Below, in pieces: positions 11,025 to 63,747 of a stretch of DNA of 64,000 bases (position 1 is its first letter; every line of letters begins with the position of its first letter). The stretch lies in assembly GCA_000091205.1 (NCBI GenBank), contig AP006484.2; one strand, written 5' to 3'. The stretch comes from Cyanidioschyzon merolae (lineage: Eukaryota). Both the position numbers and the translations under genes were made by a program. The notes under the pieces were generated by a model. It did not search any database. It saw only the letters and a list, made by a program, of their open reading frames with translations, and was not told the origin of the DNA.

Positions 11025-13433
11025 GGCATCTTCCTCTGCGCTGAACGCATGAAAACGAGTCTCATCGCTCGACTCACGATTAGGATTCATAAAGCGAATG
11101 CACATTCGCATGCCATCCGTCGCCATCGCCTCTGTAACCACCCTTTCCGTTCATCGATCCGAATGAGGGAAAGCGTTGAACGAGCGCCTCGAATGATCTG
11201 GGCGAAGTTGTTCCAACGTATCATCCTGGCGTACGCAGTGCAACCGGAGCTCACTGAACTCGCTCTACAAGACACGAAACAAGTGTCTCCGGGAAATGCA
11301 AGCGGCCTCGAGGCGAGTTACCGGGACCGTATCGCATGCCCCGCGAGAACAAGATGCAACGCTCGCACAACTGGAGTCACGCTGACGTGCTATGGAGGGC
11401 TCTGCTCATGACTCCATCGTCACGCGAGATGCAAGCACGGCAGGTATCGTGTCTCAAGCATCCTTTCGATACGACATCTGCCGGTTCGAGTTCCAGAGCA
11501 GCACCATCAGCTTGCACGAGATGAGCCGACGCTGCCTCTCGTCTAGACTGTGCTTGCAAAAAGTCGCCTCCATTTCGAATGGTATCGGTAGCACCAGCTT
11601 GTCAGTTGCCGCCAGCGACATCGAGAGGAAGCACTGCATCTCTCCAGACTCGTTTGGTCCCGGCAGCGTGAGGCTACAGCGCCTCCAGGGAGCGCCTCAT
11701 GAAGCGCTAGAGAATGACCTGCATGCGGTTGGAGTTTTTGAGGGTTGTTCCATCGTTATCGGCATCTGTGGTGTAGATGTTCAGGTCACCGGGTTCGTGT
11801 CGCAAAGCGTCAAGCAGCGGTCAGAAACATGTGTACGAACCTCTGATCCTACGATGAGACTGGCTTGCGTCTCCGGTGCCGAGTCTCAGATGTGTTGTCG
11901 CACGAAGGTTTCATCGAAAGACTCCGTAGGAATATGGACAGCTGGCTGCCCTGCATCTGGAACGGGTAGGAACACCGGCTCCTCGATGTCCACCAAGGCG
12001 AGGGAGGCTTGACGAAGCCCCTTCGTTTAGGGCGCTATGGTTCCCCTGATAGCGTCCTGCACGTCGCTTTCTGGCAGGTTCTCCGCGTTCGCGTGCTCTT
12101 GTAGCGAAGCCTTGATAACCAACACAGACCGCCCTTTCCGATCCGACTCTCGATCGTTTCAGTCGCTGCCCGTCCTCTTTTGGAGAGGAGTCTTTCTCTC
12201 GCTGGCCTGGTGGTTTCGTCTCGTTTTCGTTGACTGCGACGGCTCGCAAGGATATGCTTGGGACGCTCTGCCATCCTCGTATGCCCTTGGAGTTCGGACG
12301 GACCTGGTGGGCAGCAAAACTGAAGCTCGTCTTTTACTTGTACGATTCTATTATTCCTTAGGTGCCGCTCCGTCACCAGGTCTATTGCCAGGGCGCCTGG
12401 CGACTGCAGCGCGCCTGACCGCTTCCTCCCGCACACGAGCAGAGAGGGAGCGCAGTAGTTGGCGGCTGATGAAGGCCGAAAGCAACTTGTCGACGAACTG
12501 GGGTGTCACGGATGCGAACGACTCGCCTCTTCAACCCGGAGCGTAACCCTGGCGTTCGACGGCAGAGAAGCCACTGTCGACCGGACCGAAGTAAAGAGCG
12601 CTGGCTGGCGTCACGGGCAGCTCAACGTCAACCGCTGGTGCGTTCTCCTCGACACCTGGTGAGTGATGGAAAGCGACTTTATGCAACATCAGGACATGTG
12701 AATACGGGGAGCAGACTCCTCGAGGAAAGCCCCGACGACGAGGCATGAGGCATTGAACGACAGGGCCCGCTTGGCGAGTTGTAGGCGACCTCACGACTGA
12801 CTCGCTGCTGGGGCTCATGTTGATACGATACTCGCTTGTTTCTGCGCTGAAGCCAGGCGTTTGCCACTCCTGGACGACGCACATCTCGTGCAGGAGTGCG
12901 GGTCCTCCCGAACAGACGCTGAAGGCGTTAGACGATCCCCCGCGCCCCCTTTCTATCATATGGTATGCGTCCGCGAGGAAGTGCCCATGCAACAGTGGGG
13001 TATTCACCGTGCAGCGGTCTCCGGTTCGAGCGTGCGTTCTCCTTTGTCTGTTCGCGTATCGTTGTCAGCGTTCGGATCGTTGGTATGCGGGCCTGAGATT
13101 CTGCGGCTTCTTTAGACGTATTTCTTTGAAAACGTCTTGACTGGCGAGGATTGACAAGGACCCGATCTTTAGACAACGTTCTAGGAGTTCATTTCCAGGT
13201 GCACAACGTTCAGAGCACGGACGACGAGAAATACCGCTCATCCACTTGCTGTCAGTAGAATAACTGACCTGTACAATGAATTCTGTTTTCCGCCAGCTGA
13301 CACAGACTGTCATACAACGTTTCTGCGACCTATCCCCGATCGACACCAACCAATCCCTGTGTTGTACGCCTGCGAGAGACACATACGCACACAACAGGAT
13401 CTTTCTGGTACAGGTGTTCCGGAGCCACTGCTC
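11025..13433. repeat. Inverted-repeat copy A (~2.41 kb), partner at 24809-27220.
   Basis: Identical-length ORF translations appear on opposite strands at coordinates summing to 38242 (e.g. 11392-12012(+) matches 26230-26850(-); 12531-13007(-) matches 25235-25711(+)). ~97% identity; one 3-nt indel near the left edge. Overlapping ORFs on both strands and no conserved protein motifs, so probably non-coding. Confidence 0.85.
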
Positions 13434-13692
13434 CAGTTTAACACCGCACCATAGCTCCAAAAATCTGCCGTCTTCGTTGTTGGAGTTTACGCAGTATATC
13501 CCCCAGATATGCTACCATTACCACCGCACTCCGGACGGAGACGCTCCGCCACAGACCAACGCTCTATCGACCGCCAGGCGGCGTGCCCTCAGTGATCTCA
13601 CCAGCGCTCGGCAGCGCACTTCGTTTGGCCTTCAGTTCAGTTCGTGACCTGTCCGTGCACACAACCAACGAACTGGAACGTTTCAGAAATCT

Positions 13693-15132
13693 GTGGAGTG
13701 CATGTTTGTGTTGCCAGTACATCTGGAGAAACGACACTGCAGTCCGTTCTGCAACGTTCGGTTGGTGGCGGCAAGTCCTTGGAAACGCTTCGCGAAACGT
13801 CGCCTTTGGCTGTGCGGGGGCGCAGGTGGCCCGCCCTCCTTCGGTCGGGGAAACACCGACGATAATGACGATGACGACGACGACCAGAACGATAAAAACC
13901 GCTCTAATGGACCAAACGAACACAAAGACGACGCGAGCGACGGCCTAAACTGGTCACTGCTGCAGCGGCGGGTGCGGGAACTGCGAGCAGCTGCTGCGCA
14001 CGAAGCGAACGCCTCGGAGCGCAACTGGCAAACGGGGCGCTGTGAGCGGCTCGCGCTCCTTGTCTTCGAAGACGATGACGTTGCAGGCTTCAAATACGTC
14101 AACTCGGAGGTTCTGGTCGGCTCCAGGTCTGGTCAAGTTCGTTGGGTCGACCTGGAGCACCGACGCCTGTTGCGCACCCTCGAAGCACCGTGCTCTCGCA
14201 TCGACCCGTCGACTGTAGCGGCAACGAGTGCTCTCGACTTTGATGGTTCCGTAGCAGCGATTGGCTATGCAGACGGATCTCTCCAGTACTGGTTTCTGCG
14301 TCAAGAGACGCCCGTGAACTTTTTATCGTGGCCAAATGTGTTTCAAGCACCGGTGGTGGGTATTGCGTTGCTCCCGGGGGGCCGCTTCGCTGCCGCATCC
14401 CTCGAGGGACGCCTACGAGTCTACCCAGCGGAACCGCCTCGCCCGGGCGAGCTTGTGGTTCCAGTGCCGCCACTCGTAGACATCGACGTGCAAGTGCCGG
14501 TGCTGTCGATGGAAGCAACGACCCAACACTGTCTTATTGGTTGCCTTGACGGTACCATTCGCGTGTACTCCCTTGCGAACGGGAGCTGCGTGCTGCGTCT
14601 CAACCCCAGCGCAAACGAAGAGCGGGCAGCTGGAATTTCTGCTATCTATTACGAAACATCGACTGAAACGCTCTGGATTGGTGATGAGCTTGGACTGGTA
14701 CGCGCACTGAACCTCCAGCAAGGGGAGCTCATCCAGCGTTTCCAAGCGCATCGTGGTGGAGTTCGTTCCATTTTTGCGGATGCCACGAAATTGGTCACAG
14801 CTGGACGTACTTCCGTCCCTGGAGAGAAACCCATAGACTTTGTGGAAGACGTACTCCGAGTCGCCGAAACAGCCCGGAAGGAGACGATTCCCATTCCGGC
14901 TGTAGGAGCGGAAGTGGACGACGCAGGCGCATCGTTCCCGCATATCGAAAGTAATATTCCGGGGCTGTCGGGTGGAAGCATTCGCGTCTGGTCGCAGACG
15001 TATCAGCGACCGCTTTTTGAACTCGTTGGTCACTCCGAATCGCTCTCCACTGTGCAGTTTGATCAGAACAAGATGGTAAGTGATGGTCTGGGTAGCGTGC
15101 TGCTGATCAATCGCTTTGGTCTGAAAATCTAA
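13693..15132 (+). CDS. WD40-repeat protein with acidic (poly-Asp) N-terminal region; function unknown.
   Basis: Repeated WD-like blocks (...DGSLQYW, ...DGTIRVYSL, ...GGSIRVWSQ, SESLSTVQFD) across ~300 aa. The listed start is GTG; the first ATG is at 13702. Confidence 0.55.
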   Translation: MECMFVLPVHLEKRHCSPFCNVRLVAASPWKRFAKRRLWLCGGAGGPPSFGRGNTDDNDDDDDDQNDKNRSNGPNEHKDDASDGLNWSLLQRRVRELRAAAAHEANASERNWQTGRCERLALLVFEDDDVAGFKYVNSEVLVGSRSGQVRWVDLEHRRLLRTLEAPCSRIDPSTVAATSALDFDGSVAAIGYADGSLQYWFLRQETPVNFLSWPNVFQAPVVGIALLPGGRFAAASLEGRLRVYPAEPPRPGELVVPVPPLVDIDVQVPVLSMEATTQHCLIGCLDGTIRVYSLANGSCVLRLNPSANEERAAGISAIYYETSTETLWIGDELGLVRALNLQQGELIQRFQAHRGGVRSIFADATKLVTAGRTSVPGEKPIDFVEDVLRVAETARKETIPIPAVGAEVDDAGASFPHIESNIPGLSGGSIRVWSQTYQRPLFELVGHSESLSTVQFDQNKMVSDGLGSVLLINRFGLKI

Positions 15133-15905
15133 AGTCTCCGAGGACCTCGACAGAGCCATTGAATTCATCCAGGCTTCGTACCCGCGCACTCAGACTTGCA
15201 GTGTCTGTCAGTTTCTCATGAGGAGGATCGGCTACTCGTGGACATGCAACAACTTCACCCTGCAGATCAGTGCTTCAGTGCGGCTGAACGCTGGAGTCAC
15301 TGCTCGCTATTGCGGTATCCAGTGGAACTGAGGCAGAGGCTCAATGCCGTTGTGATTGAAAACGCAACTCGATATCTCCGCCCAGTCTGCGGCCGCAGAC
15401 CCGAAAAATCGTGTACTTCTGTGTATTGTCGGCGTGCCAGGTGCGGGACAGGCACCACGGTATGAGTGTGTCAATGTTTCTGGGCATTGGCAGCGTTCGG
15501 TGCCGAGACGGACGTCTCGGGAGAGGATGCAGTGTCGAGCACAGTTCCCAGCAATGGGCTCTGGGCAGACTAGAGGTGCCCGTTGCGCGCACAAACGCGT
15601 TGAATCATGGTATGGCGTCAAAGTCTACAACAAGAACAACAGCAAGGTCGGGAAGGGTAAATGCGCTGACGACCCCAGAGCGAGTGAACCGGTGGCCGGC
15701 GCCTAAGAAACGTTGCTGGCGCTGCGTAGAGCACTACGGATACGAGCGAATACCCAGTGAACCAAAGGACCTTCCATTCAATGGGGCACGCCGGTACCAG
15801 AATGCGCTCCACAGTGCGACATTCTGGCGTACCAGGGCCCTCTTACCGCCACAAGCTCTTGAGTCCGCAACGCGCATCATACTATCGGTGAACCTCTGCA
15901 GCATC

Positions 15906-15998
15906 CTATGAGTGCCACAAGGTTTGAATCCCGAAACGCTGGCGGGCATCCGTGAACCACTGATGTGTCCCAAAGTAGGGGTCCCAGTCGTCGTCCTC

Positions 15999-16030
<32 letters not shown>

Positions 16031-19000
16031 CGACGTCGTCGTCATCGTCGTTAGGGTCTGCGTCATCATTGTCTCCGGTGCCCGCTGAAGTCGTGGGAGC
16101 GGTCGTAGCGGCTTCGACGCACCCAGGGGCCCCATTGACAGCATCTACAACCGCCTGCCCGGTCTGTGCCTGCATCGTCGAGAATCCGTTATGCGGAGCA
16201 GTGGACAATCCAGACGCCTGGTTCGGGGAAAGCGCTGCTACCTGCATTGACCGCTGCCCAGCGCTCGTGTCTGCGCCGTGCCCTACCCAATGACCTTCGG
16301 GCAGTGGAAGCAGGGCCAGCGTCCGTTCGCTGCCTCTGCTTCCATGAGACGACAGTACACGAGCCGGAGAGCGACCCATTTCAGCTCTCAAAAGCGGCAT
16401 TTCAAGCGCATCCGATGTCGAGCACGCTGCAGGGTGTATTGTAAAAGCGACGGAGATGAGGTACGGGAACGCATGCAGCACGAGCCGGGTGTAGCGGTGC
16501 AGATCTGCAACCACATGCTTGCGATCCTCAAAGTGCTCCAGCTGGGACTCTATGTGCCCACTGGCTTCTGCTGCGGCAATGGACGACTCGAAGAGGGCCA
16601 GTTCGGCACGCTCGCGAGGTAGGAGGGTCCTGCGCTGACGGCGCGCAAACGCTAGTCTCATAGCAATATGCGCTCGCATACCGCGTACCGTCTCACGACG
16701 AATCGGCACATAGACAAAGCATTGGACGCGTAAGACGGACCTTGCTTCCACAATGACTCGCTCAAACTCATTCAAGTAGCCAAGTTCCAGCAGCAAATGG
16801 CCGAGTCGTGCCACCAGTTCAGGATCACGTTCCAGCTCTGCAGCGTGCTCGGTCTCGGCGAGGTGCAGTTCAATCTCCGCACGGCGTCTGTAGCGAACAA
16901 GTTCGGCAGCGTAACTGATAGGCCCTGCCTGGATAGTCCATAAACACGACTGCAGACGGCACGGACAAGGTTCGTTGAGCGCTTCAGCAGCAGCCCGAAA
17001 CACGGCTTCGATCGCCTCGTACTCCCTGGCGTTGAGCGTGAGACGCCCTGAACCGCCGAGTAGCACTTTTTGCATATGTGTATCAACAGTGATCCGCTGA
17101 GATGTATCCGGATGAAGCAGGTTATCGAGAAAAGCGGTGACTTTGCTCCCACTGGGGACCCCCAGACAACCCGCCAAATAGTTCAGCAATGAATTCATGG
17201 GATAAGAGCCGAAGCGCGGTCGCCTCACCTGCGAAATCGCCCGATAATTGAGCAGTGCGTTGATCGTATTTGCCGCAATCGATGAATTCGGTGAACACGT
17301 TGCAAGGAGCGAAAGGAAAAGATGCATTTCGAGAGCGTTTCCGTATGTCGCGCCCTGAACTACATCGTGGAGGTCCTGGTACCACGTGTACATGGCTGGA
17401 TGCGTTGCGCGGATGCGCTTCAAGTGGTCGCCCAGTGTCTCCAGGGTCGGTGGAGGCCTCTCGAAACGGTGTTCCCCGAGAACCTCGATACAGGTGCGTA
17501 ATGCAGCTTCAAAAGGCAACGGCTTGCTGGACGCTGCAGTAGGTGGTGCAGGTTTCACCAGCGTCTGTGAGTCGAGTCGTTGGCGTCGAGCCCATTCTCT
17601 GCGCGCTTGCATCCCATTAGCGACTGGATTGAACCGCACCAGCTCCTCCAGAGCATGCCGGACTGCCCGCAGCTTCCGCGATGATGCCCACTCGTCCGGT
17701 ACACTGAAGACCCGCGGATGTGTTTCGTAGATGCACTCTCGAAGAGCGTGCTGAACGTGCGCCTCGGCAGAGAGGCGGGGTGTAGTGTCCGCAACCGTCC
17801 CGCGTTCCCGCAGGATGCGTCGTTCGTACGCATGTTGGACGCGTACGTAGAGCAGCACGTGCTCCTGTCTGCGCAGCTCGTTGGTGATCGCTGCGAGGCT
17901 CTTTTGTGTGGCTCCGAGGAGTTGCTCCAGGCGGTCGCGACCTTCCTGGACGAGAGCATCGATTTCCTGACGATGTTTTTGACGGAGTCGTTCACCTTCT
18001 TCACCGGCAGGGTACGCATTAGAGCGAAGATATTTCGTAGGGTTTGGCGCAATCGCAAGTGAGCCAAAAGTCTTCGGACTGCCTCCAGAGGTGTCGCTTG
18101 TGGTGTGCATGAGTAGCTGCTCCTGGCGATGGCCGACGCGTTCCAGCCACTGCTCCCGTATGCTCATGAGCCATTGTTGATATAGGGCAACATTCTGCAG
18201 CGGCCAGAGAGCACGACATGTGTCATCTGTTGTTGCGACGTGATCAGGAGCTGTGCTCTTGATCCCGCCCTCAGTGGTCTGCGTGTGTGCCGCTGCCTCC
18301 GCTGCTGCTTCACGGACAACCGATTCGGCTGCCGTCTGTATCTTTGCGTCTTGTTCGGAGTCCTCAGTGCCGCTTGATCGGATGCGCTGCTGATCCTGAA
18401 TCCAAAGCAGGGCACGGGACCAAGCGTCTTCCATGCTCGCGTCAGTTACAAGCGAAGCGACGGTAGCATCGGCGTCGACCCTGTGCGTTTGAGGATCCTC
18501 GATGCCGCTGATGCCCCCGTTCGATGCACTGCTCGCTGCTGGTATATTTTCGATTATAGACGGCCGCCACGGGGTGAAAGCGTGTTCCTCTAATCTCGCG
18601 TTCTGCAGCTTTGCTGACGACGGAAGGGCATCACATGTTGAAATAGCACTGCAATCGTTCCGCAAGCCCGCGGAAGCCTGCTTCATTGGTGACTGGAGCA
18701 CTTTGGGCGGTCTCCAGGGCGGTGCTTCGCGTTCACGAGCTCTCGACAAGCACAGCCTAGGACGCCGCGGCCCAAGCTGGTCACGTTCAGGTCTGGTTGA
18801 AGACTTTTGGCCGCTGGCAGCAACGGTAACGGCTTCCTTATTGCCAGGGCTACAAGCGTCCTGGCCGTTTCCCGGCACAAGGGAGCTGCGCTTCTTCGGG
18901 GACCAAAATGTCTCACAAGCATACGATTTGGCTTGCACGCTGTTTTTTTGTACGTCAACCATATTGCTTACTTCTGACGAACGCGAACTGCTGCCGCAGC

Positions 19001-19262
19001 GCACCGGTGTAGCAGCGGGCACAGTCTCGAGGCCCAGCGCTTTAGCGGCCTTCAGAAACGGATTTTCGCACGCGTTAGGTGCGAGCACCCTATCCAGTAA
19101 TGGTGTCGCCACTCTGCCTGAGTCGGTTTGCGGGGAACTAGTCGGCGGCACGAACGCTGGACCTGGTGGAGCTGATGCCTCTTCCTCTGACGTCTGCATC
19201 GCGGGGAAAAGCACAACAGCTGGACCCTTATTTTCCCCAAATTCTCCGCTTACAGCAGCCAC
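15906..19262 (-). CDS. Large orphan protein (1118 aa) with a ~60-aa poly-Asp/Glu tail encoded by a (GAT/GAC)n microsatellite at ~15987-16052; no recognisable domain.
   Basis: Long uninterrupted ORF with the GC-rich codon bias typical of neighbouring genes. No motif recognised by eye. Confidence 0.4.
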
Positions 19263-20432
19263 CTATGCAAATACAGTATTTTAAGGTCGGTCTCTGGAGA
19301 TTATGAGCCAAAGATCACAACTAAACACCGCAAGTTCCCGAAAAGCTCAGATAGCGCATTCTGATACCAGATCGCTTAGAGCGCGATCCAGTACGCAGTT
19401 GTTCGCGAGGCGCATCGGCGGCTGGAGGCGGCGGTTGATCTGCAGCGATCCATCGCAGTGCGATGGCTTTGTAGTGTCTCCAGCCTAGGCTCTTGAAACT
19501 AATCTGATATAGTAGACCGGGATACAGTATGCGCTTTTGTCGGGTGCCTCGATCGTTCCAGGCGAGATGCAAGGATCAAACGTCGTGGCAGATATGGACG
19601 CTACAAATGTGCTATGCCTCTGCCGAGATCACCAGATCCGGGGGACGTAGCGGGCATCATAACTTGGACAGCGACGATAGCATGGAAATGACTTGAACTA
19701 TCATCGGTTCTAGCCCATGACGCGGGATAGAAGCAAAATTCAGGTCAGGTCCTTATTCCAGCGTCCGTGCGGCATGCATAACAAGCATAGGGATTAAACG
19801 TATATCCGTGTTCAGGAATCCTACCGTGCCTTGTTTGTTTACGATCAATAAAACTAACGAAACTCTTCAAGGCTAGAGTGATGCGTACCTTATCCAGACA
19901 AGCGTAAGCCGCAGAGAACGCTACGCTTTTGATCGAAGCGTCGAGGGGTATCCTGCCAGGCCCCTACATCTCCATGTATGTCAAGGCGGTACTGCGATGG
20001 GCAGTAGCTTCGGCACCAGCGACAGACCCTATAGCAAGAGATTATTCTACGTGAGTTTCCAATCTACGATACTTTATTTCAGCTGCAGCGCGATACAAAC
20101 ACGCATGTGCCAAGGCGGGGTGTCGGACACGTGTCCTTCATCGATCGATGAGGCGTCTCGCGCAGCGCATGCATCGCGCTCGATGAGGGTACCTGGGAGT
20201 TGGGGCAGATATGAGACACGACGCGCGTGCCGCCGTTGAAGGGAAACGTGATCTTGATCTTTAGCGTCTAGCTCTCGTGTAAAAGTTGTATTTTCGTTAA
20301 CTTCATAGGCAAGTATAGTTTTTAGTTCGATTGTGTTTCAACCCTCAAGTGAAAATATTCGATTGATTTTTCGCAGTGTATAAGAGAAGCCTTCACAGAG
20401 GGTTCATTTGAAAAAACTCAAAAAGGAAAGTT

Positions 20433-21230
20433 ATGGAAGAGCAAGTCGACGATCCTGGAGGCCCAGGGTCGCAGGCTGCCAGAAAAAACAAAAAAACAGT
20501 GCCGAGTCCAGAAGAAAAGGAAGAGAAGAAGACCCAAAGGGGGAAGGTCCTACGTCGAAGGCGGCAGGAAAGACGACTGTACAACGAGATGGTGGTGAAT
20601 ACCTCTCTTCTTGGACATATCAAGGATCCGTACGAGCAAAATTTGCGAGACGCTATCAGAAACCGTGTCGATTCGGACTCCAGGAGTATTATAGAGGCGT
20701 CGCCAGGACTGATGCATTTAGCGAGGGAGGTGTATCGCGACGTGACGCACATGGAAACGGTCGAGATTCCGGACGAGCTCTTCGACCAGACTTTTATTCG
20801 TCACCTAATGCTTGGCACAGGGGAAGCGCGGAGGGGAAATGAGCGGGTGCAAGTCCTCCACGAAAACTTCGCGGAATTCCGCTTCGAGGGTAATCGATAC
20901 AGGGGTGACGGGGATATTTACATACGCGGCGCCATGAAGTACCTCACGAATCTGAAGAACCATTTAACAGTGAACCTCGAACGTTTCATGATACGCACCG
21001 AGTTTGCACTTTACCCGGGCATCTCTCGCAAGGGGATATCGGCGATGATCAATGGAATCACGAACGATCGCCAGCGAGAAGATGAGATCAAGTTCGTTGA
21101 CAAGAAGCCGTCACACAGGAGCATGAATGAAGTCTCTGTAATCCGTGCGCCTATACAAGAGCACCGTGCAGTCTTGGGGCTGGCGAATCCAACAGACAAG
21201 ATATCAGAGTTGAAAAATGATAAGGAATGA
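20433..21230 (+). CDS. Fanzor-like gene, N-terminal segment: basic NLS-like tract followed by a helical (REC-like?) region.
   Basis: ATG at 20433. KNKKTVPSPEEKEEKKTQRGKVLRRRRQERR resembles the NLS-rich N-termini of Fanzor proteins. No catalytic motif. Assignment to the same gene rests on collinearity and a phase-compatible GT-AG candidate intron at 21209-21308. Confidence 0.3.
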   Translation: MEEQVDDPGGPGSQAARKNKKTVPSPEEKEEKKTQRGKVLRRRRQERRLYNEMVVNTSLLGHIKDPYEQNLRDAIRNRVDSDSRSIIEASPGLMHLAREVYRDVTHMETVEIPDELFDQTFIRHLMLGTGEARRGNERVQVLHENFAEFRFEGNRYRGDGDIYIRGAMKYLTNLKNHLTVNLERFMIRTEFALYPGISRKGISAMINGITNDRQREDEIKFVDKKPSHRSMNEVSVIRAPIQEHRAVLGLANPTDKISELKNDKE

Positions 21231-21303
21231 TGTTATCCCCTCATCCTACGCTACTTCGTGCTTCTGGAACGAGAGCTCGAACGCAAGGCGGAGATGAAGC
21301 TGA

Positions 21304-22634
<1,331 letters not shown>

Positions 22635-22707
22635 GGCGCGTTCGCCGCCACTACTCTACTCGGTCGGCGTCCTTCGCCTTTAGGACGGAGTTCGTTGGTG
22701 CTCGTTG

Positions 22708-23445
22708 ATGTTCGGCAGCAGCCGACGCGCAACGGTGAGGAAGAGCTTGTCTATTATCGAAGAGGATGAAGACGAGGCAGTCAGTGAATGCGACAGTCCT
22801 GCGGAGCTCCGGCACCGGATCACTGACGGACCGAGGAAGTTTGACGCTGTCGGAGTGACCGGTCACGGCGTGGAGAGCGACGAGTCCAGTGCTGGTAACG
22901 AAACGATGCCCTCGAGAGCACACAAGGTGCCACTCGGCCCGGTGGAGCAATCACGTCTGGGAACGAGTGCGCGCTCGAGACGCCAAGAGCAGCGCGGGCA
23001 AAACACTGACCAGATTCGTGAATTCCAAGTACGGTTACAGGAAACCCAAGATGCGCTGAGAAAAACTCAGGCCGAGGTAAGTATGCTCCGGGCTCACGTC
23101 TCGGCCCTGGAGATGGCACTGGAGGAGCGGAACACTGAAGTGCGGCGGCTACGTGAGCAGCTTGCATCCAGCGCACCAGGCGCTAGTGGGACTTTGAATG
23201 TACAGCAGGGGAAAGTGGCCTCGGCCGTAGGTCGAGACCTGCTCGGACTCTTAAGAAGTAGCCATGCGTCCGCAGCTGATTCGCCGATATCGATTTCCAC
23301 TGTCTCTGAGGGCGCACTGAAACCGTCGCTGCCATCACGACTTGTCGAGCTGCGCGCCAATACTTCTCCAACAGCGAGCTCATCTGCGTCGAATATCTTG
23401 CTAGGTACTCCAGATACTGGAAAATCTTCGATGGGCAAACGTTGA
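22708..23445 (+). CDS. Hypothetical coiled-coil protein (acidic N-terminus, heptad-rich centre).
   Basis: 246-aa ORF (ATG at 22708) with ...IREFQVRLQETQDALRKTQAEVSMLRAHVSALEMALEERNTEVRRLREQL. GC-rich like host genes. Starts 70 bp after the Fanzor-like ORF stop. Confidence 0.3.
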   Translation: MFGSSRRATVRKSLSIIEEDEDEAVSECDSPAELRHRITDGPRKFDAVGVTGHGVESDESSAGNETMPSRAHKVPLGPVEQSRLGTSARSRRQEQRGQNTDQIREFQVRLQETQDALRKTQAEVSMLRAHVSALEMALEERNTEVRRLREQLASSAPGASGTLNVQQGKVASAVGRDLLGLLRSSHASAADSPISISTVSEGALKPSLPSRLVELRANTSPTASSSASNILLGTPDTGKSSMGKR

Positions 23446-24808
23446 CGCCGGTGCCTCTAGGCCGGCGAGAGCACGCCAGATAAGTCTTCTGTAGTTGATG
23501 AGGTACCGTGGCGCTGCTCCTTGTACACTGACAGGCATTGGTGTGGTCTGCGACCGCCCTTGCCGCCCGAAACGGAGCGGATTTTCGTTGCGCTGGGAAG
23601 TGCCCGCTGCAGAGGTCGCTCTCTGGGATGTACTCGAGCCCTAGATATTGTATTAGAAGCGGATTATCCCGTATGAAGACTATCGAAAACGCTTTCACGA
23701 GACAGGCCATGGATTATGGGAAGTTGCACTGGGGAATCACTGCCTTGCAGGTTTCTTTTGTTGCATCATCGGAATCGTAAGCTGGCACTCTTGTATCTCT
23801 CTGCGACGACCTGAAAAAGAGCGTTTCGTCTGCGAAATCTTACGAAATCATGGACCACAGGGTGTGGTCGAGCGCAGAGAAGCGTTGCCGGCTTGCATTC
23901 GGTCCCGTATGTTCGTACTGTCTTTTCTAAATGTCGCCTCATTGCTCCAGCTCTATGTCGCTAGTCATGCGTGCAAAGATTCAAATGTGCAGGCAGGTCT
24001 ATGTCCAGTTCCAAGTCCGCGACGCATGAAAGCAGGTAAGGCAGCAGGCATGGATGCATGTGTACGCGTTTGTTCGCATCCACGCGGGCAGGTAGGCAGG
24101 TAGACACGCTGGTACACAGGAGCTGGATTCTGCATCTGCGCTCTGCGAAGGCTATCCAGCAAAAAGATCGGGATACGTGCTGGGTCCCAGTGCTAAAGAT
24201 CAGAGCGTGTACCAAATACAATGTGCAAGGAGTTGATCAATGGCATGCAAAGGCGACCGCCACGCCCTCAGGTCATGTTGTTCACGGCATTTTGCGACAA
24301 TTGCATTGAGGTACTCGTTCGCATCCGTTCCATCTATTCCAGCTTCTGGAAATCTAGCTTGAAAGGTATCATATTAGGAAGGGAGCAAGCATTGATGATG
24401 CCTTGCACCTGACAGCTCTTCAAATCCTCGATCGCAAAAAGTACGCATTGGAGGTTTAGACGAGGCGCAACCTTGATGTGTCGAGTTTTAGGGAATAACG
24501 TGGGCGTTTACCAGCAAATCTTAACAAGCTAGTTCTTTGCGCTGGGGATGGGGGGTGTCGCATTGCGGCTGCTGCGATCAATTGGGCGAAAAACTCGTGC
24601 CATGATTGGTCGGCATTTTTCATCTTCTAGGATCGAAGAGAAGAAACAGGGACAACATGGGTGCGGCATTGTTGTTGGTTTCCAGGGACCTGACCACCAG
24701 GCCGATCTAAAACCACAACTTCCACGAAACACGAACCAGACCTCGCAAGGTGGGTGCAACGATGCTGACCGTTGTCAAGGGCCGGTCCGTTGACTTTTTT
24801 TTGGTTCA

Positions 24809-27220
24809 GAGCAGTGGCTCGGGAACACCTGTACCAGAAAGATCCTGTTGTGTGCGTATGTGTCTCTCGCAGGCGTACAACACAGGGATTGGTTGGTGTC
24901 GATCGGGGATAGGTCGCAGAAATGTTTTATGACAGTCTGTGTCAGCTGGCGGAAAACAGAATTCATTGTACGAGTCAGTTATTCTACTGACAGCAAGTGG
25001 ATGAGCGGTATTTCTCGTCGTCCGTGCTCTGAACGTTGTGCACCTGGAAATGAACTCCTAGAACGTTGTCTAAACATCGGGTCCTTGTCAATCCTCGCCA
25101 GTCAAGACGTTTTCAAAGAAATACGTCTAAAGAAGCCGCAGAATCTCAGGCCCGCATACCAACGATCCGAACGCTGACAACGATACGCGAACAGACAAAG
25201 GAGAACGCACGCTCGAACCGGAGACCGCTGCACGGTGAATACCCCACTGTTGCATTGGTACTTCCTCGCGGACGCATACCATATGATAGAAAGGGGGCGC
25301 GGGGGATCGTCTAACGCCTTCAGCGTCTGTTCGGGAGGACCCGCACTCCTGCACGAGATGTGCGTCGTCCAGGAGTGGCAAACGCCTGGCTACAGCGCAG
25401 AAACAAGCGAGTATCGTATCAACATGAGCCCCAGCAGCGAGTCAGTCGTGAGGTCGCCTACAACTCGCCAAGCGGGCCCTGTCGTTCAATGCCTCATGCT
25501 TCGTCGTCGGGGCTTTCCTCGAGGAGTCTGCTCCCCGTATTCACATGTCCTGATGTTGCATAAAGTCGCTTTCCATCACTCACCAGGTGTCGAGGAGGAC
25601 GCACCAGCGGTTGACGTTGAGCTGCCCGTGACGCCAGCCAGCGCTCTTTACTTCGGTCCGGTCGACAGTGGCTTCTCTGCCGTCGAACGCCAGGGTTACG
25701 CTCCGGGTTGAAGAGGCGAGTCGTTCGCATCCGTGACACCCCAGTTCGTCGACAAGTTGCTTTCGGCCTTCATCAGCCGCCAACTACTGCGCTCCCTCTC
25801 TGCTCGTGTGCGGGAGGAAGCGGTCAGGCGCGCTGCAGTCGCCAGACGCCCTGGCAATAGACCTGGTGACGGAGCGGCACCTAAGGAATAATAGAATCGT
25901 ACAAGTAAAAGACGAGCTTCAGTTTTGCTGCCCACCAGGTCCGTCCGAACTCCAAGGGCATACGAGGATGGCAGAGCGTCCCAAGCATATCCTTGCGAGC
26001 CGTCGCAGTCAACGAAAACGAGACGAAACCACCAGGCCAGCGAGAGAAAGACTCCTCTCCAAAAGAGGACGGGCAGCGACTGAAACGATCGAGAGTCGGA
26101 TCGGAAAGGGCGGTCTGTATTGGTTATCAAGGCTTCGCTACAAGAGCACGCGAACGCGGAGAACCTGCCAGAAAGCGACGTGCAGGACGCTATCAGGGGA
26201 ACCATAGCTCCCTAAACGAAGGGGCTTCGTCAAGCCTCCCTCGCCTTGGTGGACATCGAGGAGCCGGTGTTCCTACCCGTTCCAGATGCAGGGCAGCCAG
26301 CTGTCCATATTCCTACGGAGTCTTTCGATGAAACCTTCGTGCGACAACACATCTGAGACTCGGCACCGGAGACGCAAGCCAGTCTCATCGTAGGATCAGA
26401 GGTTCGTACACATGTTTCTGACCGCTGCTTGACGCTTTGCGACACGAACCCGGTGACCTGAACATCTACACCACAGATGCCGATAACGATGGAACAACCC
26501 TCAAAAACTGCAACCGCATGCAGGTCATTCTCTAGCGCTTCATGAGGCGCTCCCTGGAGGCGCTGTAGCCTCACGCTGCCGGGACCAAACGAGTCCGGAG
26601 AGATGCAGTGCTTCCTCTCGATGTCGCCGGCGGCAAATGACAAGCTGGTGCTACCGATACCATTCGAAATGGAGGCGAGTTTTTGCAAGCACCGTCTAGA
26701 CGAGAGGCAGCGTCGGCTCAGCTCGTGCAAGCTGATGGTGTTGCTCTGGAACTCGGACCGGCAGATGTCGTATCGAAAGGATGCTTGAGACACGATACCT
26801 ACCTTGCTTGCATCTCGCGTGACGATGGAGTCATGAGCAGAGCCCTCCATAGCACGTCAGCGTAACTTCAGTTGTTCGAGCATTGCATCTTGTTCTCGCG
26901 GGGCATGCGATACGGTCCCGGTAACTCGCCTCGAGGCCGCTTGCATTTCCCGGAGACACTTGTTTCGTGTCTTGTAGAGCGAGTTCAGTGAGCTCCGGTT
27001 GCACTGCGTACGCCAGGATGATACGTTGGAACAACTTCGCCCAGATCATTCGAGGCGCTCGTTCAACGCTTTCCCTCATTCGGATCGATGAACGGAAACG
27101 GTGGTTACAGAGGCGATGGCGACGGATGGCATGGGAATGTGCATTCGCTTTATGAATCCTAATCGTCAGTCGAGTGACGAGACTCGTTTTCATGCGTTCA
27201 ACGCAGAGGAAGATAATGCC
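24809..27220. repeat. Inverted-repeat copy B (~2.41 kb), reverse complement of 11025-13433.
   Basis: See copy A. Mirrored ORFs have near-identical translations with a few substitutions (e.g. MKTSLIARLT vs MKTSLVTRLT). Confidence 0.85.
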
Positions 27221-29509
27221 GTCGTGGAGGGCGCGAGTCCCCTGCCTGAAAATACCCTGGCCATCGCCGTACCTCCGAATCAAGAGAACGGAGCCGACGA
27301 CCTCATGAGGAAAGCCGATGACGCTTCTTAGCTTTTCCAGAGTTCCGCTTGATCGAGATTCGGGCATCTTCGACACCGGCAGGGACACCCAGATGAGAAG
27401 AGTCGGCGTCTGGACCCATGTCGATGCTCGTTGCAACGTATCGAGCATATAGCGATGCTTTATTCGCTTCATGGAGATTGGCCGTGAGCACCCGTATGGC
27501 TCAGGGCCACGACCTCTGGCAGGGGGATATGGGATCGTACTGGGTCGCCAACGCTATCGGTTGTATGGGGGCAAGTAGTGTGCATTCACTTCCCTTTTCA
27601 ATGAGTTATGAGAGGAAATCACGCGGAAGGCGCGTCATTTGGTGGTATCCTATGGCGCTGGATGTGCTGCGGCATGCAATGCTTGCACTCCTGCTCCCCC
27701 TCTGACGAGAGAGTACAACGACTGCAGGGATCGATGCTGTACGATTTTTATGGATGCATTCTTGTCGACATACACGCATCACGAGCAGTGCTGCACCACG
27801 AAAACTATGAGGGAGGAATCGAGCGACACAGTATCCGAAGCGCGAGATGACTGGCGGGCTAAGCTGACCGAACGATAGATAGCGAGCGAATCAAAGATGA
27901 TAGGCTTGCTATGGTGTATTGTCACCAGTAAGAGAACGCGCAAGCATTTCCTCTACCAATACCGCAACGTTGCGATCAGCAAACGGAGTAATCTCGTGCG
28001 TTCGGAGCGTTTAGCGGCACGGCGTCGAACGAACTTCTAGGGAATCGTTTCGTACTCCGCATGGGCAGTGTGCTTGGACACGGACGACGTCCCGTGACGG
28101 AACCTGTTGTCAAATGCGAGGGTATTGGATTCTGGGCGGAGCTACGTACGGGCATGGTAGGAGTCAGCACCCGAATAAGGCTGGAACTCCGTATTTAGGT
28201 ACATACAATGGGAACGAGTTTTCAGGGCAATTCATGAACGTTCGTATTTGCCCATGATGCGACGTTTCTGTTGATGAGCAAGCAAATGTGAGTATCATTA
28301 GGGAGCTCACTTCTGGACAGCATGATGCTGTGACTCTACGCATAGACCTACGCTTCTCGAAGGCAGCCGCTTTATGACACGGGGCGATAAAATCAACGTC
28401 GATACCCGCCAGCATCCAAAATACTATCTGGATTGTGGTGCCTCGCATCGTTCAAGCGTTCCGAAGGGTGCGTTGCTTCCAAAGCGTTCCAGGTATTCTG
28501 CGTTACTTTCGCAGATGCAGCATGCTGTCTCGCTAGGTGCAGAGCGATCACGGGCAATTCGGCTTAAGGCGCATGATGGAAGCTTCCGATCTTGCAGTTA
28601 TCTCGAGTGCCGGTCTTCATGGCCAGTGCACGTGGAAACGTTGTCTTTGAAAAGTTTCGTGAGAGCGATCGCACGGAACTCGACGGGTTTTCGGAGACAC
28701 TTCAACACAAGCACCTTGCCGCAGACGTGATCGATCTAGATGCGGCTGGGGCATAGCATCGTGCATCGATTCGAAGCATTGCTCCACAATAAGCAGCAAA
28801 TGAGCAACGCAGCTGTGGATATCGGGGAGAGGTTCGCGATCGACACGCCTCTTCGCGCAAAGAGCGCTCCATCGCGTCGACATTCACAGGGGTCATCGTG
28901 CTGGTAGACCCGCCTTGGAACACTAGCAATGCATTGTCTCGATGGATACGTATTCGTCACGAGGATTGATACCTTGGCTTTGAAGCAGCAGTCTCTTCAT
29001 GAGACAGCTGCTTCAAACCAGTGCCGCCTCGGCCAGCAACGTCAGCAGCGTATCGATGCGCTGACCCATAAACCATCCACACATGCACCACTGTCGGTGA
29101 AACGCTTACTCACCTTCCCTAGCTTCCACCGAAACAAAAACTTTCATTTAATTGGCGTATTTAGAACTAGATAGTCACTCAGCTCAGAAACGATATAGAA
29201 TCATTCCGTCGTCCTGAGCAAGGGGTAGTTTGGATCCAGTGCATCTCTGGCCTTGTGCGACGCTCGCGTTCCCCTGATCGGCTTGCTTACGAGGCAATTG
29301 TTACTCAAGAGTCACGGTCCACAAGTGAAAAGCAACGGTCGCTGGTACAGAGCCGAAAATCCCCACCGATTCGAGTGCAACAGTTGCTTGGGCGCACCGA
29401 ACCCGAAGCAGTCAAAGCCAATCATCACTTGAAGACTGCACCTCTTGCCACGCTGCTTGACCCTTATCAGCGACATAGACCTTGACTGGAATCTGTCGTC
29501 AAGAGTTAC

Positions 29510-30520: not shown

Positions 30521-30744
30521 ACACGTATTTGGCTGGCAAGCACCCGTTTTCCCTCAAGCTCAACTGACCACGTACGCTTCACAAAGCGCTTGTGCAACGT
30601 TTGACACAAACACAAACGCAAGCTAAAGAACGTTGGGTGTGTGTGTGTGGAGATCGTTGCATCACGCGCCTGTCAGGGCGCGCCGGCGTGATAGTCGCCG
30701 GCGCGCTTCTCCAGCGCACACCTGGGTGCCGTGCGATATACCTG

Positions 30745-31090
30745 CAGGTGCTCCTGCTGTGTTTGCTGCGTTCATGGTATTGTGCGAGGTCCCGTAGGTA
30801 CGCGACTGCGTTGAAAGCAGGTTTAGGCTTCTGCTCCTTCAGTGTTTGCTGCGTTCATGGTATTGTGCGAGGTCCCGTAGGTACGCGACTGCGTTGAAAG
30901 CAGGTTTAGGCTTCTGCTCCTGCAGTGTTTGCTGCGTTCATGGTATTGTGTGAGGTCCCGTAGGTACGCGACTGCGTTGAAAGCAGGTTTAGGCTTCTGC
31001 TCCTGCAGTGTTTGCTGCGTTCATGGTATTGTGCGAGGTCCCGTAGGTACGAGACTGCGTTGAATGCAGGTTTAGGCTTCCCTCGCGGAG
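30745..31090. repeat. Minisatellite, ~84-bp unit x ~4.
   Basis: Units start at 30761, 30844, 30927 and 31010: gtttgctgcgttcatggtattgtgcgaggtcccgtaggtacgcgactgcgttgaaagcaggtttaggcttctgctcctgcagt. Preceded by a (GT)n tract at ~30641-30652. Confidence 0.85.
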
Positions 31091-60166: not shown

Positions 60167-63100
60167 AGGTAACGGTGGTAAACGTCCAGTGAAGCCGGAA
60201 TGCGGCGGTTACCTCGTTGTGTGCAACTGCAGGCACCCAAGGCGACGTAAAGCTATTGAAGTGCATCGGCGGCGCCTGTGGTGCCGGCGCCCGGTGCGAC
60301 GGCACCATGGATGCGCTGTCGGAGGTTTGTATGCTCGGGGTCACGGGGGATGCCCTGCTCTTTTCTCCAAAAGTATTGTGGATCGAGTAAAATGCCGGTG
60401 ACTGGCCCGCAGCACGTATGCAGCGCTTATACGGCTGCCAGGATAGAACTGCAACGAGTTCACTGACTCAACGAGGGCGAACACGCGCAAGTTTGCGTTA
60501 TTTCATATCGTCAACTGCACCAGAACTTGGGGGTTGGTTTTTCGGTCTCCTGTGTCGCGTCTCCAACTTTAAATACGCTGGTCTCTCGTTTCGCTCCGAT
60601 TTCGTGAGCATCAGTCAGAGGATCGTGATAACAGGGCCAAATTCTCGTTCATAGGATTTCCGGTTGGCATAGACACGTGATAGGCGCAGGCGAAAGTTTC
60701 GATCGAATCTTCATTGGCCATGCTCACCTATTTGTTTGCGGCATCGGCGTACGCTTTGCAGCGATCACACCCGACTATGGTCAGATGCTGCCTTGTCTCC
60801 AGCGTGCTTCCTCGTACGAGTACTGCCCTCCGGCGCTTGAACTGTTGCTGCATCGCTCTGTACACGCACTAGACGAGTACAGAAGACTCCCCGTCGATGC
60901 CCTCGACCGTTTTCGCGTCTGGTGCCGTACCCGAAGATCACGAGCTTCGTCAGTGGCGATGCCCCCGACGAGTACTCTGTATGCGTCATATGCGAGTGCG
61001 CACTGTTCCATGCCATTGAAGATTTGTGGATTGCGGTGTTCGCCATGGTGGTAGGGATTTGGAAGGAAAATGCAGGTTGGAGAACTTGCCGAGAACTATC
61101 GATCCGGTGGCGTTCTCTTCATGGAAACCTGTGAAGCTTTCCCCATTGGAAGCCGTCTCCGCTATGTGTAGAGTACGAATCCATGAACACTTTTCATGCA
61201 AACAGAAGACAGGGTAGCCTCTCTGGGAGCATATCCCCTGAATTGTATCGTGCTGCGGTTGAATCCGCCGATTCATCGACGGGCACACAGAGAGAAGCAC
61301 CTGTCTTTCGACCCGCGTCGAGTATTTGACATGCGCTTGGGAAGAAGTCGTCAAGGAAGGTCGTCGAGATTCTCTCCTCATCGAAGCAGGGACGCGCATA
61401 GCTGTGCTCCTCGGTTACCTTGAAACAGAAAGATCGAGTTCTAGGAAACTGTATGAATTGAGCACGCGATATTTACGGAACGGAGAAGAGTCAAGGCTTG
61501 TTGTTCTGCATTGCGTTAAAATATCGGTTATTATAAGAGCCCTTGTACGAATCTGTCGCATGTCACTGTGATGATGGTGAGGTGACGAATTCTACTGGGA
61601 CTTTGTCGAAGGGGCCGTCCCGGAGAAAACAACCGCCGAGAATCGTAAACCAAGGTATGCATCCAAGAACGCCAATTCCCGCACTTCGAAATTAGAGGCG
61701 CAATATCAACACAAGTTCGCAGAGAAAATCGACAGATAGAAACAGAACGAGCAGTTCAGTTCGCGATGGTAGTTCGACACCATTGTGGAGCGCAGCAGCG
61801 TATCGCGCTCGTTCGACTGTACCTGGACGAGTTCGGATAATGTGCAGTCGGGCACACGAACCAGCCCGGGCAGAACTTGGTCCAGGCTCACCTGGGATGC
61901 TGGAGTGTCCTGAGGCGCAACTGGGTATGCCCGTTTGCCGAAACGATTCATTGTCGTTCGTTGGCACTCGTTTAGAGAGACACCCAGCTGCTAGACATGT
62001 GTGCACCATGCGTCCTTGGTGCGTGCGAGCGACGAATATCCCAATGTCGTCGGATCCCGTGGATGACAACCACGCAGCATCGACTCGTTACTCGTTCGAC
62101 GCACTAGTTGATGCCGCGGGCGTGCCGCCATCGCGTGCTATAGCGCGTCCTGCGCCAAAGGCGAATACCGCACCACGTGACTTGTCGGTCATGTTCTTTG
62201 CCACTTCATTGATGAAGCCCGCAAATCTATGCATCTTGCCTCCATGCAACCGATACCGTTGGCGGCCCCAGCGAGGTCTCTCGGAACGCTGTCGAAAATC
62301 GTTCGCACGAGCCATGTGGACGCTTCTGCTCTGTCCAGTGCTGGGCGCTACGGAATCGATGTTGGCACTGTCACGCCATTTGTTGGTATATACGCTGGCG
62401 TCCATAATGCTCGACTACCCATAAACGCGAACAATGGAGAAATCAAGCCATATTACATATTCTGTCTGAGCATCAATTACCCTGTCATATGAAGGTTCTA
62501 TCGAAAATTTCGAGAGGCATCTGCTCAGCTGGTAGCCCTGCGTCCGGATCGGCTACAGCAAGTCGTTTGACGAGGTGCATCGGGGCGAGAGCGGTGCCTC
62601 GCGAGACTTTGTCGCGTAAGGAGCTATGCGATATCTGTTGGCGTCCTGAATCTATCGATTAGCCGGAGACGAACTTGTTGGCTAGTGATCTATGCGCGTA
62701 AAAACCGCGTTTGCCGATAGTGACAATGCCGTACACTGGATAGAAGCTGGGAGCATGGGCTGGTACGAAGACCAGGTCCAGCCAAATTCCAGCTGTATGC
62801 TCCCTGTTTCTTGTTCAGTCATGGAACGCGACATTGCTAACGAGCAGGACAGACGAATTTGGTAAGGAGGAGCTTGGCAGAGAGACTCGATGAACGACGC
62901 GTCGTCGAGCAATCCTAACCGTTCGGCGATTTGGGGCCGGCCTCACGCTTGACTCCCCGCTGGGCCTGAAGCCGTTGTCGCACGTGCTTGACTCCTCTTT
63001 ACGGCCGGAGGTCTGCCCCTACTTCATCAACGATGCACAGACCTGCCAGTCTTCCCGAATCAAGACTCATCGAATGAGACGAACACCATCCAAACCTGTA

Positions 63101-63747
63101 CTGACAAAAATTCGCTTCTCAGTACGAAATCAATCGTGTCTTGTGCAACGCATGGCGCTCTCCCATACAGGCGTGCTTTGCCTCAACGTCCGCCCGTGTC
63201 CCTTCGTCACCGTTCGTATCGAGGGCATAGAGACGTCTCATTCGACGGCATCGTGAACATTGTCTCTTACACATCATATTCAGTAGAATACCTTTCGAAG
63301 GAGATCGTCGTCCATTTCGTCAGAGTTTGACCGGTTCTCCTCTAGGATGCGTGACGTTCAGAGCCAGCGTCGACGACGAGCAGCGTCATTCGACGTTGCT
63401 ATGCCCGTTGAAATACTGACAAGTAACGCCATTCTATATATGACAGCGATGACACCTTAGAGCCTTTCCAGGACCTCTGTCCAGACATCATCGCCACCAC
63501 CATCATCAGATATTCTATTCATAGAATACCTAGAAGAAAAAAAAACAGCGTGCTCCCGCAGGTATTCCAGCATGGACCGCTCCCGCACTGTAACGGACTC
63601 GCGGAGGGCGGCAGCGCGCGCACTTTGCGCGCCCCCGATGTGCTGTCCGTTTCGCCGCATCCGCCGGTGCCAGGCGCAGAGAAAAACGTTTCGCCTAGCG
63701 GAACTCGTACGTAGAAGCAGCGGAAGCGCGGCCCAGCGGCGAGCGTC

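Follow-up and report, generated by a model that had tools for sequence, protein, structure and literature searches.

The locus analysed here lies on chromosome 2 of the nuclear genome of Cyanidioschyzon merolae 10D, within a 64-kb stretch of DNA that is referred to as the window. Of ten proteins from the window, eight are identical to entries for this chromosome (457,013 bp). Repeat search and blastn identify a pair of inverted-repeat arms of 2,406 nt each (11028-13433 and 24809-27214), which differ at 35 positions with no gaps (98.55% identity) and are separated by a spacer of 11,375 nt. This is the sole inverted repeat of at least 60 nt found in the window by repeat search, and it cannot be due to chance. 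The two approximately 2.4-kb inverted repeats of a preliminary description are thereby confirmed, while its figure of about 97% identity is to be replaced by 98.5%, and the 3-nt indel that it placed at the left edge is unneeded, positions 11025-11027 ('GGC') being alignable solely via a 3-nt gap that is not significant. The mismatches are unevenly distributed: the outer 705 nt hold 21 of the 35, a divergence of 3.0%, as against 14, or 0.8%, over the inner 1,701 nt. A sensitive search of the left against the right flank, and of the left against the right inner flank, detected no similarity past the arm edges. The features of the window are the following:

11028..13433, minus strand (sense strand of the element): left arm, which repeats nucleotides 1-2,406 of element B in inverted orientation
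13702..15132, plus strand: WD40-repeat host gene (BAM78934; Pfam WD40), exact match to a C. merolae 10D protein
15906..19199, minus strand: host gene CMB136C (BAM78935), containing DUF7178 (Pfam), match to a C. merolae 10D protein
20170..22681, plus strand: element A, the 'Fanzor island', a CMe-1A copy (published Fanzor1 element) separate from the arms
22708..23445, plus strand: coiled-coil ORF of 245 aa, shortly downstream of element A
24809..27214, plus strand: right arm, first 2,406 nt of element B, a dead Fanzor1-type element
27215..28043, plus strand: 3' remainder of element B, outside the repeat, decayed C-terminal (RuvC) half of a Fanzor1 gene
61965..63521, minus strand: element C, an old member of the arm sub-family and its third copy here, about 60% identical and with internal deletions

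The content of the bracketed segment had been given correctly as a WD40 gene, a 1118-aa orphan gene (CMB136C), the Fanzor island and the coiled-coil ORF. The WD40 gene starts 269 nt from the left arm, and Rfam and tRNA scans of the window gave no matches. The coiled-coil ORF is absent from the NCBI annotation of 10D, and its protein adjoins unrelated loci in three environmental contigs (L048-L050). The ORFs of the island (element A) match the published CMe-1 protein (734 residues), and the published CMe-1A consensus (3,169 nt; PMC3627910, supplementary file 2) aligns by nhmmer from position 643 to 3160 with 20170-22681, and by blastn with 86.7% identity over consensus positions 676-3135 (window 20204-22659). 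This copy lacks the first 642 nt of the consensus, is frameshifted and, according to the alignment, has lost two of the three RuvC acidic residues. Proteins of the CMe-1 type are abundant in hot-spring metagenomes, with more than 200 related clusters at 65-80% identity.

The same family accounts for the arms. The right arm consists of about 1.1 kb of 5' non-coding sequence followed by the decayed N-terminal part of a gene, whose C-terminal half continues beyond the repeat. The CMe-1A consensus (positions 1075-2958) aligns with 26110-27999 (nhmmer, E 1.9e-25), and 26178-27819 is collinear with the CMe-1A copy at 20641-22293 (nhmmer, E 7e-14), in an alignment that passes the arm edge at 27214|27215 uninterrupted. 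At the protein level, tblastn places three collinear pieces of CMe-1 on element B: residues 31-124 at 26048-26347 in the right arm, residues 371-458 at 27095-27319, straddling its outer edge, and residues 457-699 at 27312-28043 (33% identity, E 2.5e-25), while family members from metagenomes match the 3' remainder with E values of about 1e-21. Pfam and PDB gave no significant match for this Fanzor-like family in sequence and profile searches, and its Fanzor1 status rests on PMC3627910; its identity is nevertheless settled, because the published CMe-1 sequences match. The arms had been described as having no recognisable protein-coding content, but the outer 1.1-1.2 kb or so of each is a stop-ridden Fanzor1 N-terminal remnant; none of the arm ORFs is intact, and a Pfam search with them gave no match. 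Duplication of a promoter or 5' region, or a non-coding RNA family, were also considered for the arms and are ruled out by the collinearity with the Fanzor1 element.

Element B extends from 24809 to at least 28043 (about 28,050-28,200), i.e., over about 3.2-3.4 kb, and no terminal inverted repeat (TIR) was found within the unit. Its 27215..28043 part carries stop codons and a frameshift and has lost the catalytic residues: the RuvC-like D-E-D motifs of TnpB/Fanzor are not retained, with GASPLPEN and DAFLSTYTHH in place of GADPGNTN and DEFRTS of the family consensus, and a degenerate third motif (NRDFNAAINI in the consensus). Judged by these sequence features, element B is a dead relic and not a functional Fanzor. 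It shows the hallmarks of Fanzor1 elements (a length of about 3 kb, no TIRs and dispersed relatives) and is a full-length but dead member of the alga's Fanzor1-bearing interspersed repeat family, of which about 150 CMe-1A copies without TIRs have been reported (Bao and Jurka 2013, PMC3627910). The 253 copies of a 3.2-kb interspersed element described by Nozaki 2007 (PMC1955436), whose ORF is truncated and WSV486-like, probably belong to the CMe-1A family as well.

The arms and 27215-28043 thus resemble CMe-1A in their collinearity with both the DNA consensus and the CMe-1 protein, as well as in size (about 3.2-3.4 kb), lack of TIRs, host genome and a state of decay shared with most copies. In contrast, element B has only about 30% amino acid identity to CMe-1 and a 1.1-kb 5' non-coding part without detectable similarity, and therefore belongs to a divergent, older sub-family related to published CMe-1A. 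Two further differences concern the left arm, which is a partial copy, and the pair that it forms with element B, which is 98.5% identical, as opposed to the roughly 80% identity to consensus that is typical of family members. Elements B and C are the only members of the sub-family seen in the window. Arm positions 852-1035 and 1482-2343 align with 62466-62651 and 62664-63521 of element C (nhmmer, E 2e-37 to 1e-38), element B 27327-27755 aligns with 62447-62059 (E 8e-18), and CMe-1 residues 462-591 match 62447-62091 (tblastn). Similarity between elements B and C fades about 60-85 nt before the inner edge of the arm, which leaves an uncertainty of about 85 nt in where element B begins at its 5' end.

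The left arm carries the corresponding pieces of the gene (CMe-1 residues 31-124 at 12194-11895 and 371-389 at 11147-11091; tblastn) and is cut off at 11028, around residue 424 of the 734-residue Fanzor1 consensus and just before the first RuvC motif. The break is abrupt and falls inside the decayed reading frame, and no element similarity was found to extend into the left flank. Two stop codons are common to both arms in the sole coding stretch aligned for the two, that of CMe-1 residues 31-124; the left arm would therefore have been copied after the element had died.

Both arms are present in independent hot-spring assemblies of wild relatives. The right arm is spanned by the 76-kb contig L010 and the left arm by L001, L002, L016 and others, while three 11.65-kb contigs (L045-L047) extend over the inner segment and a further 140 nt into each arm, and L063 stops on reaching the left arm. 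The break points of DNA assemblies coincide exactly with the arm edges, and all junctions of the reference are recovered in independent assemblies. As these contigs between them reach or span both arms, an assembly artefact in the 10D reference, which the preliminary description wished to see excluded and for which no supporting point was found, has a negligible probability. A junction in L010 with a dehydrogenase gene (adh_short) at 19486 was considered as a real rearrangement and is more probably an assembly switch within a repeated element, because the sequence just inside is about 75% identical to the window. A pattern scan retrieved three loci in metagenome contigs and none in viral contigs.

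These observations bear on how the pair arose. As an alternative, it had been proposed that the 16.2 kb as a whole form a single large transposon bounded by TIRs, with the host genes and the Fanzor as cargo. Such a unit has in its favour the geometry only, i.e., long terminal inverted repeats around a segment, which is also the only likeness to Polinton-like and other giant TIR-bounded DNA transposons. However, the right 'TIR' is part of a longer element that runs at least 830 nt beyond it, the interior consists of conserved single-copy host genes, and a single locus is present in all assemblies, with no other copies among the contigs. No target-site duplication was found at 11028/27214 (flanks ...GTAGTTGGC before the left arm and AATGCCGTC after the right arm), nor any transposase, integrase or polymerase inside 11028-27214, where Pfam gives only WD40, DUF7178 and coiled-coil matches; the earlier statement that integrase and polymerase genes are missing thus stands, and the capsid genes of Polinton-like elements are missing too. 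As the arms derive from a Fanzor1 element themselves, the proposal is unsupported, and we regard it as very improbable.

We therefore favour, with good confidence, a transposon-derived inverted duplication of a dead Fanzor1 element that thereafter served as a passive recombination substrate. The left-arm copy would have been made after element B had lost its coding capacity, and copying at that stage would make it a secondary duplication of dead transposon DNA; we infer this order of events, as no empty site lacking an arm was found in any lineage. The route may have been a segmental duplication, local and inverted, or else mobilisation in trans with a 3'-truncated copy as its outcome. The latter would make the left arm a separate B-type insertion, truncated at its 3' end, rather than a segmental duplicate. 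Consistent with two independent insertions, the inner ends of both arms lie at the same element position, near the end of the similarity to element C, other family members appear alike at the 5' end with varied 3' ends (L048 breaks at 24205, L049 and L050 at 23941), and the family has neither TIRs nor a defined target-site duplication (PMC3627910). An inner edge coinciding with the transposon terminus would favour transposition, and one that includes flanking sequence a segmental duplication, but the 5' terminus is resolved only to about 85 nt. In addition, the arms share 98.5% identity and the same two stops, as opposed to about 60% identity in the only other B-type copy seen, and about 45 arm-bearing environmental contigs with flanks read (of about 50 placed) show no flanks beyond the four known from this window, and no third recent copy. 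Two insertions consequently appear rather unlikely, though far from negligible. No host function for the arm pair is implied by the favoured inverted duplication.

Once formed, the pair would constitute a passive 2.4-kb inverted repeat, within which homologous recombination could exchange arm sequence, and a crossover between the arms could invert the 11.4-kb segment with the WD40 gene, CMB136C and the separate CMe-1A copy. An inverted pair of this length and 98.5% identity is a plausible substrate, and homologous recombination is efficient in C. merolae, where it is used for gene targeting. The environmental contigs give the reference junction from the left flank through the arm to the WD40 side 11 times and that from the right inner flank through the arm to the right flank once, while four contigs (L034, L004, L036 and L003) carry a flipped junction from the right flank through the arm to the WD40 side; in L034, 3.4 kb of right flank and the arm are followed by 4 kb of the WD40 side. 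The start of L003 is odd. The reciprocal junction, from the left flank through the arm to the right inner flank, was not seen among contigs sought via the 299-aa ORF, the coiled-coil ORF and arm-ORF variants, and the 14-kb contigs from this search ended at the arm. The way in which the flipped contigs are numbered, together with the description of the project, points to short-read metatranscriptome assemblies as their probable source. Such contigs could be chimeras, because an assembler's path through a repeat follows read coverage.

A static inverted duplication, in which the segment does not detectably invert, the flipped contigs are chimeric and the shared arm variants reflect collapsed arms or old polymorphism, is somewhat favoured on this evidence. 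Arm-spanning contigs come mostly from series that point to short-read metatranscriptomes, the two that appear DNA-based (L002 and L010) are both in reference orientation, the reciprocal junction is absent, and the four flipped contigs versus one reference contig in their population fit random resolution. On the other hand, the flipped junction occurs in four independent assemblies produced by at least two assemblers, including the Logan contig L036, random chimerism is not general, because all ten spanning contigs of the other population are in reference orientation, and efficient recombination is established for this alga. A link between orientation and lineage through inner-flank variants was initially clean and was broken by L055, which has the same inner-flank haplotype as the flipped contigs, yet the reference orientation. 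Actual inversion in nature is accordingly quite possible, if somewhat doubtful, whereas a segment that is naturally invertible via dead Fanzor1 copies, with an orientation varying between or within co-occurring Yellowstone Cyanidioschyzon populations, must be considered unlikely. Of the flip-flop inversion claimed earlier, there remain a plausible substrate and a flipped junction in four contigs, set against probable RNA assemblies and an unseen reciprocal junction. The accompanying claim that gene conversion keeps the arms similar fares alike: variants that distinguish the arms in 10D occur on both left-linked and right-linked arms of other strains, with assembler collapse as a confounder that could mimic exchange, and arms group by population and not by position, a within-population likeness that may also come from assemblers collapsing both arms. 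Sequence exchange between the arms is thus suggested by the shared variants.

Among known systems, the locus is reminiscent of Ty- and IS-mediated inversions in its near-identical opposed copies around unique genes, the suggested exchange and the flipped junction in some assemblies, but differs in that a truncated part of a dead element, rather than an intact insertion, makes up one of the copies, and in that the signs of inversion come from assembled contigs and not from long reads. A long inverted repeat around a unique segment with two possible isomers is likewise found in organelle genomes and the yeast 2-micron plasmid. Those flip-flop systems invert frequently, in some cases by means of a dedicated recombinase, whereas the present locus is a single nuclear one that lacks a recombinase gene and gives no sign of equimolar isomers.

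The genome of C. merolae is extremely streamlined and famed for its near absence of transposons. The present analysis leads to a different reading of this locus, in which the 'anonymous' repeats turn out to be relics of a transposon and the Fanzor island to belong to a family published in 2013, and indicates that Fanzor1 elements of a divergent, older sub-family (B and C) coexist with CMe-1A in a nearly transposon-free genome. It reveals no new kind of mobile element and no new mechanism, and its practical value is modest. It does point to a possible inversion of two genes on chromosome 2 by ectopic recombination, a matter relevant to the engineering of C. merolae by homologous recombination and to the population genomics of Yellowstone Cyanidioschyzon. 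If true, an invertible segment would be the first documented transposon-mediated structural polymorphism in the C. merolae genome.

A repeat search over the whole window recovers one inverted pair, 11028-13433 and 24809-27214, with 2,406 nt per arm and a spacer of 11,375 nt. The arms give a single ungapped 2,406-nt alignment with 35 mismatches (98.5% identity), unevenly distributed, the outer 705 nt holding 21 of them and the other 1,701 nt 14, and no similarity past their edges (blastn, 300-nt margins). The inverted repeats of the preliminary description (11025-27220) are real, except that its extra 3 nt match only through a 3-nt gap and are not meaningful, and that its identity of ~97% is too low. 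The outer flanks, GTAGTTGGC (left) and AATGCCGTC (right), share no direct repeat, and there is thus no target-site duplication.

Of ten ORFs from the window, eight match C. merolae 10D chromosome 2 proteins exactly. The neighbouring genes encode ATP-citrate lyase (BAM78932), LSm (BAM78933), a WD40 protein (BAM78934), CMB136C (BAM78935) and signal peptidase (BAM78936), and the surroundings hold Spt6, NOG1, Pex3, Cnx1 and other housekeeping genes of an ordinary eukaryotic kind. Rfam and tRNA scans of the window return nothing. Gene calls for CMB136C (DUF7178; 15906-19262) differ in length among wild relatives, at 1,116-1,118 aa or 840-842 aa. All related contigs keep a 299-aa ORF at 7198-8097 intact, in 15 protein variants differing at ~6 positions; it is missing from the NCBI proteins of 10D and may be an unannotated gene.

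The features on which the identity of the arms rests are as follows, the CMe-1 pieces being tblastn matches.

11028-13433 (-), left arm
20170-22681 (+), Fanzor island between the arms
24809-27214 (+), right arm
26048-26347, CMe-1 residues 31-124, in the right arm
27095-27319, CMe-1 residues 371-458, in the right arm and flank
27312-28043, CMe-1 residues 457-699, in the right flank (E 2.5e-25)
27209-28052 (+), decayed Fanzor-like gene copy directly adjoining the right arm (tblastn, Fanzor-like family members as queries)
61965-63521 (-), element C, related to the arms

The one Fanzor1 family described in C. merolae, CMe-1A, is 3,169 nt long, with ~150 copies, no TIRs and an undetermined target-site duplication (Bao and Jurka 2013, PMC3627910); its DNA consensus and the CMe-1 protein were taken from the supplement of PMC3627910. 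Consensus positions 643-3160 match 20170-22681, with 86.7% identity over 20204-22659 (blastn), so the Fanzor island is a CMe-1A copy, and one independent of the arms. The arms have no intact ORF and no Pfam match. By nhmmer, 26178-27819, i.e., the right arm's outer 1 kb and 600 nt of flank, is collinear with 20641-22293 of the island, in an alignment continuous across the arm edge 27214|27215, and the CMe-1A consensus matches 26110-27999 (E 1.9e-25). The three CMe-1 protein pieces are collinear over right arm and flank, with stop codons and a frameshift within, and the protein alignment shows loss of the acidic RuvC residues. In reverse complement, the left arm carries this first piece too, interrupted by the same pair of stop codons (tblastn), and breaks off at 11028, at about residue 424 of the 734-residue protein. 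Copies within the window, the published DNA consensus and the published protein thus all show the arms to be transposon relics, contrary to the view that they hold no recognisable protein-coding content: decayed Fanzor1 coding pieces are present, though no ORF is intact. The right arm is the 5' 2,406 nt of a Fanzor1 element (B), now dead, of ~3.2-3.4 kb, from 24809 to ~28,050-28,200. The left arm is an inverted copy of that 2,406-nt part only, probably made when B had already decayed.

With the arm as query, a sensitive nucleotide search finds a third, ~60% identical copy of the arm sequence at 62466-62651 and 62664-63521 (E ~1e-37), directly adjoined by a decayed Fanzor-like gene at 62450-61965 (-) (tblastn). 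This element C is an older sibling of B, relative to which it has two internal deletions. At the protein level B and C are only ~30% identical to CMe-1, and no similarity of their 1.1-kb 5' part to CMe-1A is detectable; they thus indicate a divergent sub-family beside the single C. merolae family listed in 2013. In size, B fits the 3.2-kb element for which Nozaki et al. 2007 (PMC1955436) report 253 interspersed copies and a truncated WSV486-like ORF, and white spot syndrome virus is among the Fanzor1 carriers of Bao and Jurka (PMC3627910).

Further repeated DNA lies in the inner segment, as indicated by the sequence just 3' of the Fanzor island, including the coiled-coil ORF, which is joined to unrelated loci in three environmental contigs (L048-L050), and by the many contigs that break at 19.36-19.49 kb. 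The coiled-coil region 22372-24205 recurs there at 98-99% identity, with a break at 24205, ~40 nt upstream of a ubiquitin-S27a gene, in L048 and at 23941, beside an 843-aa ORF, Pex2/12 and ALAD, in L049 and L050; either the DNA was copied recently and its 3' ends vary, or the assemblies switch there. The 245-aa coiled-coil ORF is intact in many strains and missing from the NCBI annotation of 10D. Many contigs end at 19.36-19.40 kb, and at 19485|19486 contig L010 (positions 1-1371) passes over into a locus for a short-chain dehydrogenase. Just inside this junction, 55 nt are only ~75% identical to the window, which suggests that another repeated element starts at 19486 (TAGGCTCTTGAAAC...), ahead of the CMe-1A copy, whose own start is only at 20170. 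Elsewhere, a tandem array of 92-bp units (at least 16 copies, 54872-56548) abuts a CMe-1A 5' fragment at 56518-57144 (-), ~the first 624 nt of the consensus, a part equated by its authors with the 635-bp TE-N2_CMe element (PMC3627910). Since the unit itself matches consensus ~514-566, a transposon fragment seems to have expanded into a satellite here. An imperfect GCTGCTGCGGATG-type microsatellite (6869-7087) is the start point of many environmental contigs, and an 83-bp tandem repeat (4 copies, 30666-31080) apparently differs in copy number in L010.

Exact-protein look-ups in JGI, ENA and Logan yielded 69 wild Cyanidioschyzon contigs, 98-99% identical to the window, which cover the locus as follows.

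L010 (part of a 76-kb contig), inner segment, right arm and right flank
L001, L002, L016, L025-L029, L041, L042 and L055, left flank, left arm and WD40 side
L045-L047 (11.65 kb), inner segment, extended on either side by exactly 140 nt of arm
L063, ends at the left arm

Since independent contigs span either arm, both are present in nature, and the earlier caution about an assembly artefact falls away. Flanks were read in ~45 of roughly 50 placed arm-bearing contigs, and only the four flanks of the window were encountered, so the 2.4-kb unit is two-copy at this level of identity. The proposal of a giant TIR-bounded element with the Fanzor as cargo is not supported by this single locus, with conserved host genes inside and without target-site duplication. 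The right 'TIR' of such an element is only part of a longer element, and the unit is without transposase or polymerase.

Sequence exchange between the arms is suggested. In other strains, both alleles of the 35 sites distinguishing the 10D arms occur on left-linked and right-linked arms, only the innermost site, 13421, strictly tracking its flank, and in a neighbour-joining tree arms cluster by population, not side, the L010 and L011 right arms joining the 10D left arm, and the L002 left arm joining the 10D right arm. Gene conversion or paired crossovers would give this pattern; part of it could also arise if assemblers collapsed the two arms.

Flip-flop inversion of the segment, also proposed earlier, finds its support in four contigs that run from the right outer flank across an entire arm into the WD40 side, the junction expected of the inverted isomer: L034 (3.4 kb of right flank, 2.4 kb of arm and 4.0 kb of WD40 side), L004, L036 (a Logan contig) and L003 (which starts oddly and has just 67 nt of flank). 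All four carry one WD40-side flank haplotype, and ten reference-type contigs from another sample series carry a different one; L055, however, combines the reference arrangement with the 'flipped' haplotype. The reciprocal junction was never found in repeated searches among environmental contigs. The Lemonade Creek data consist of 12 short-read metagenomes plus many Poly-A/RiboMinus metatranscriptomes (PMC11662350, PMC11003980), and judging from contig numbering the series Ga0504770-781, whose contigs break at the arms, would be DNA assemblies and the series giving arm-spanning contigs RNA assemblies, in which the path through the repeat follows read coverage, making chimeras likely. L002 and L010, arm-spanning contigs of apparently DNA-based assemblies, are both in reference orientation. 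Natural inversion is therefore only suggested, given L055, the missing reciprocal junction, the likely RNA assemblies and the reference orientation of DNA-type contigs.

If the series Ga05065xx and Ga05560xx (~30 assemblies) are metatranscriptomes, as contig numbering suggests, RNA would cover the left arm (11028-13433) and its flanks without interruption from ~7.0 to 17-19 kb, in agreement with the transcription reported for these elements. Overall, the inverted duplication is real, derived from a transposon and of an ordinary kind, in a genome and an element family that are both published; its one mildly interesting aspect is that it may drive an inversion polymorphism in wild populations.
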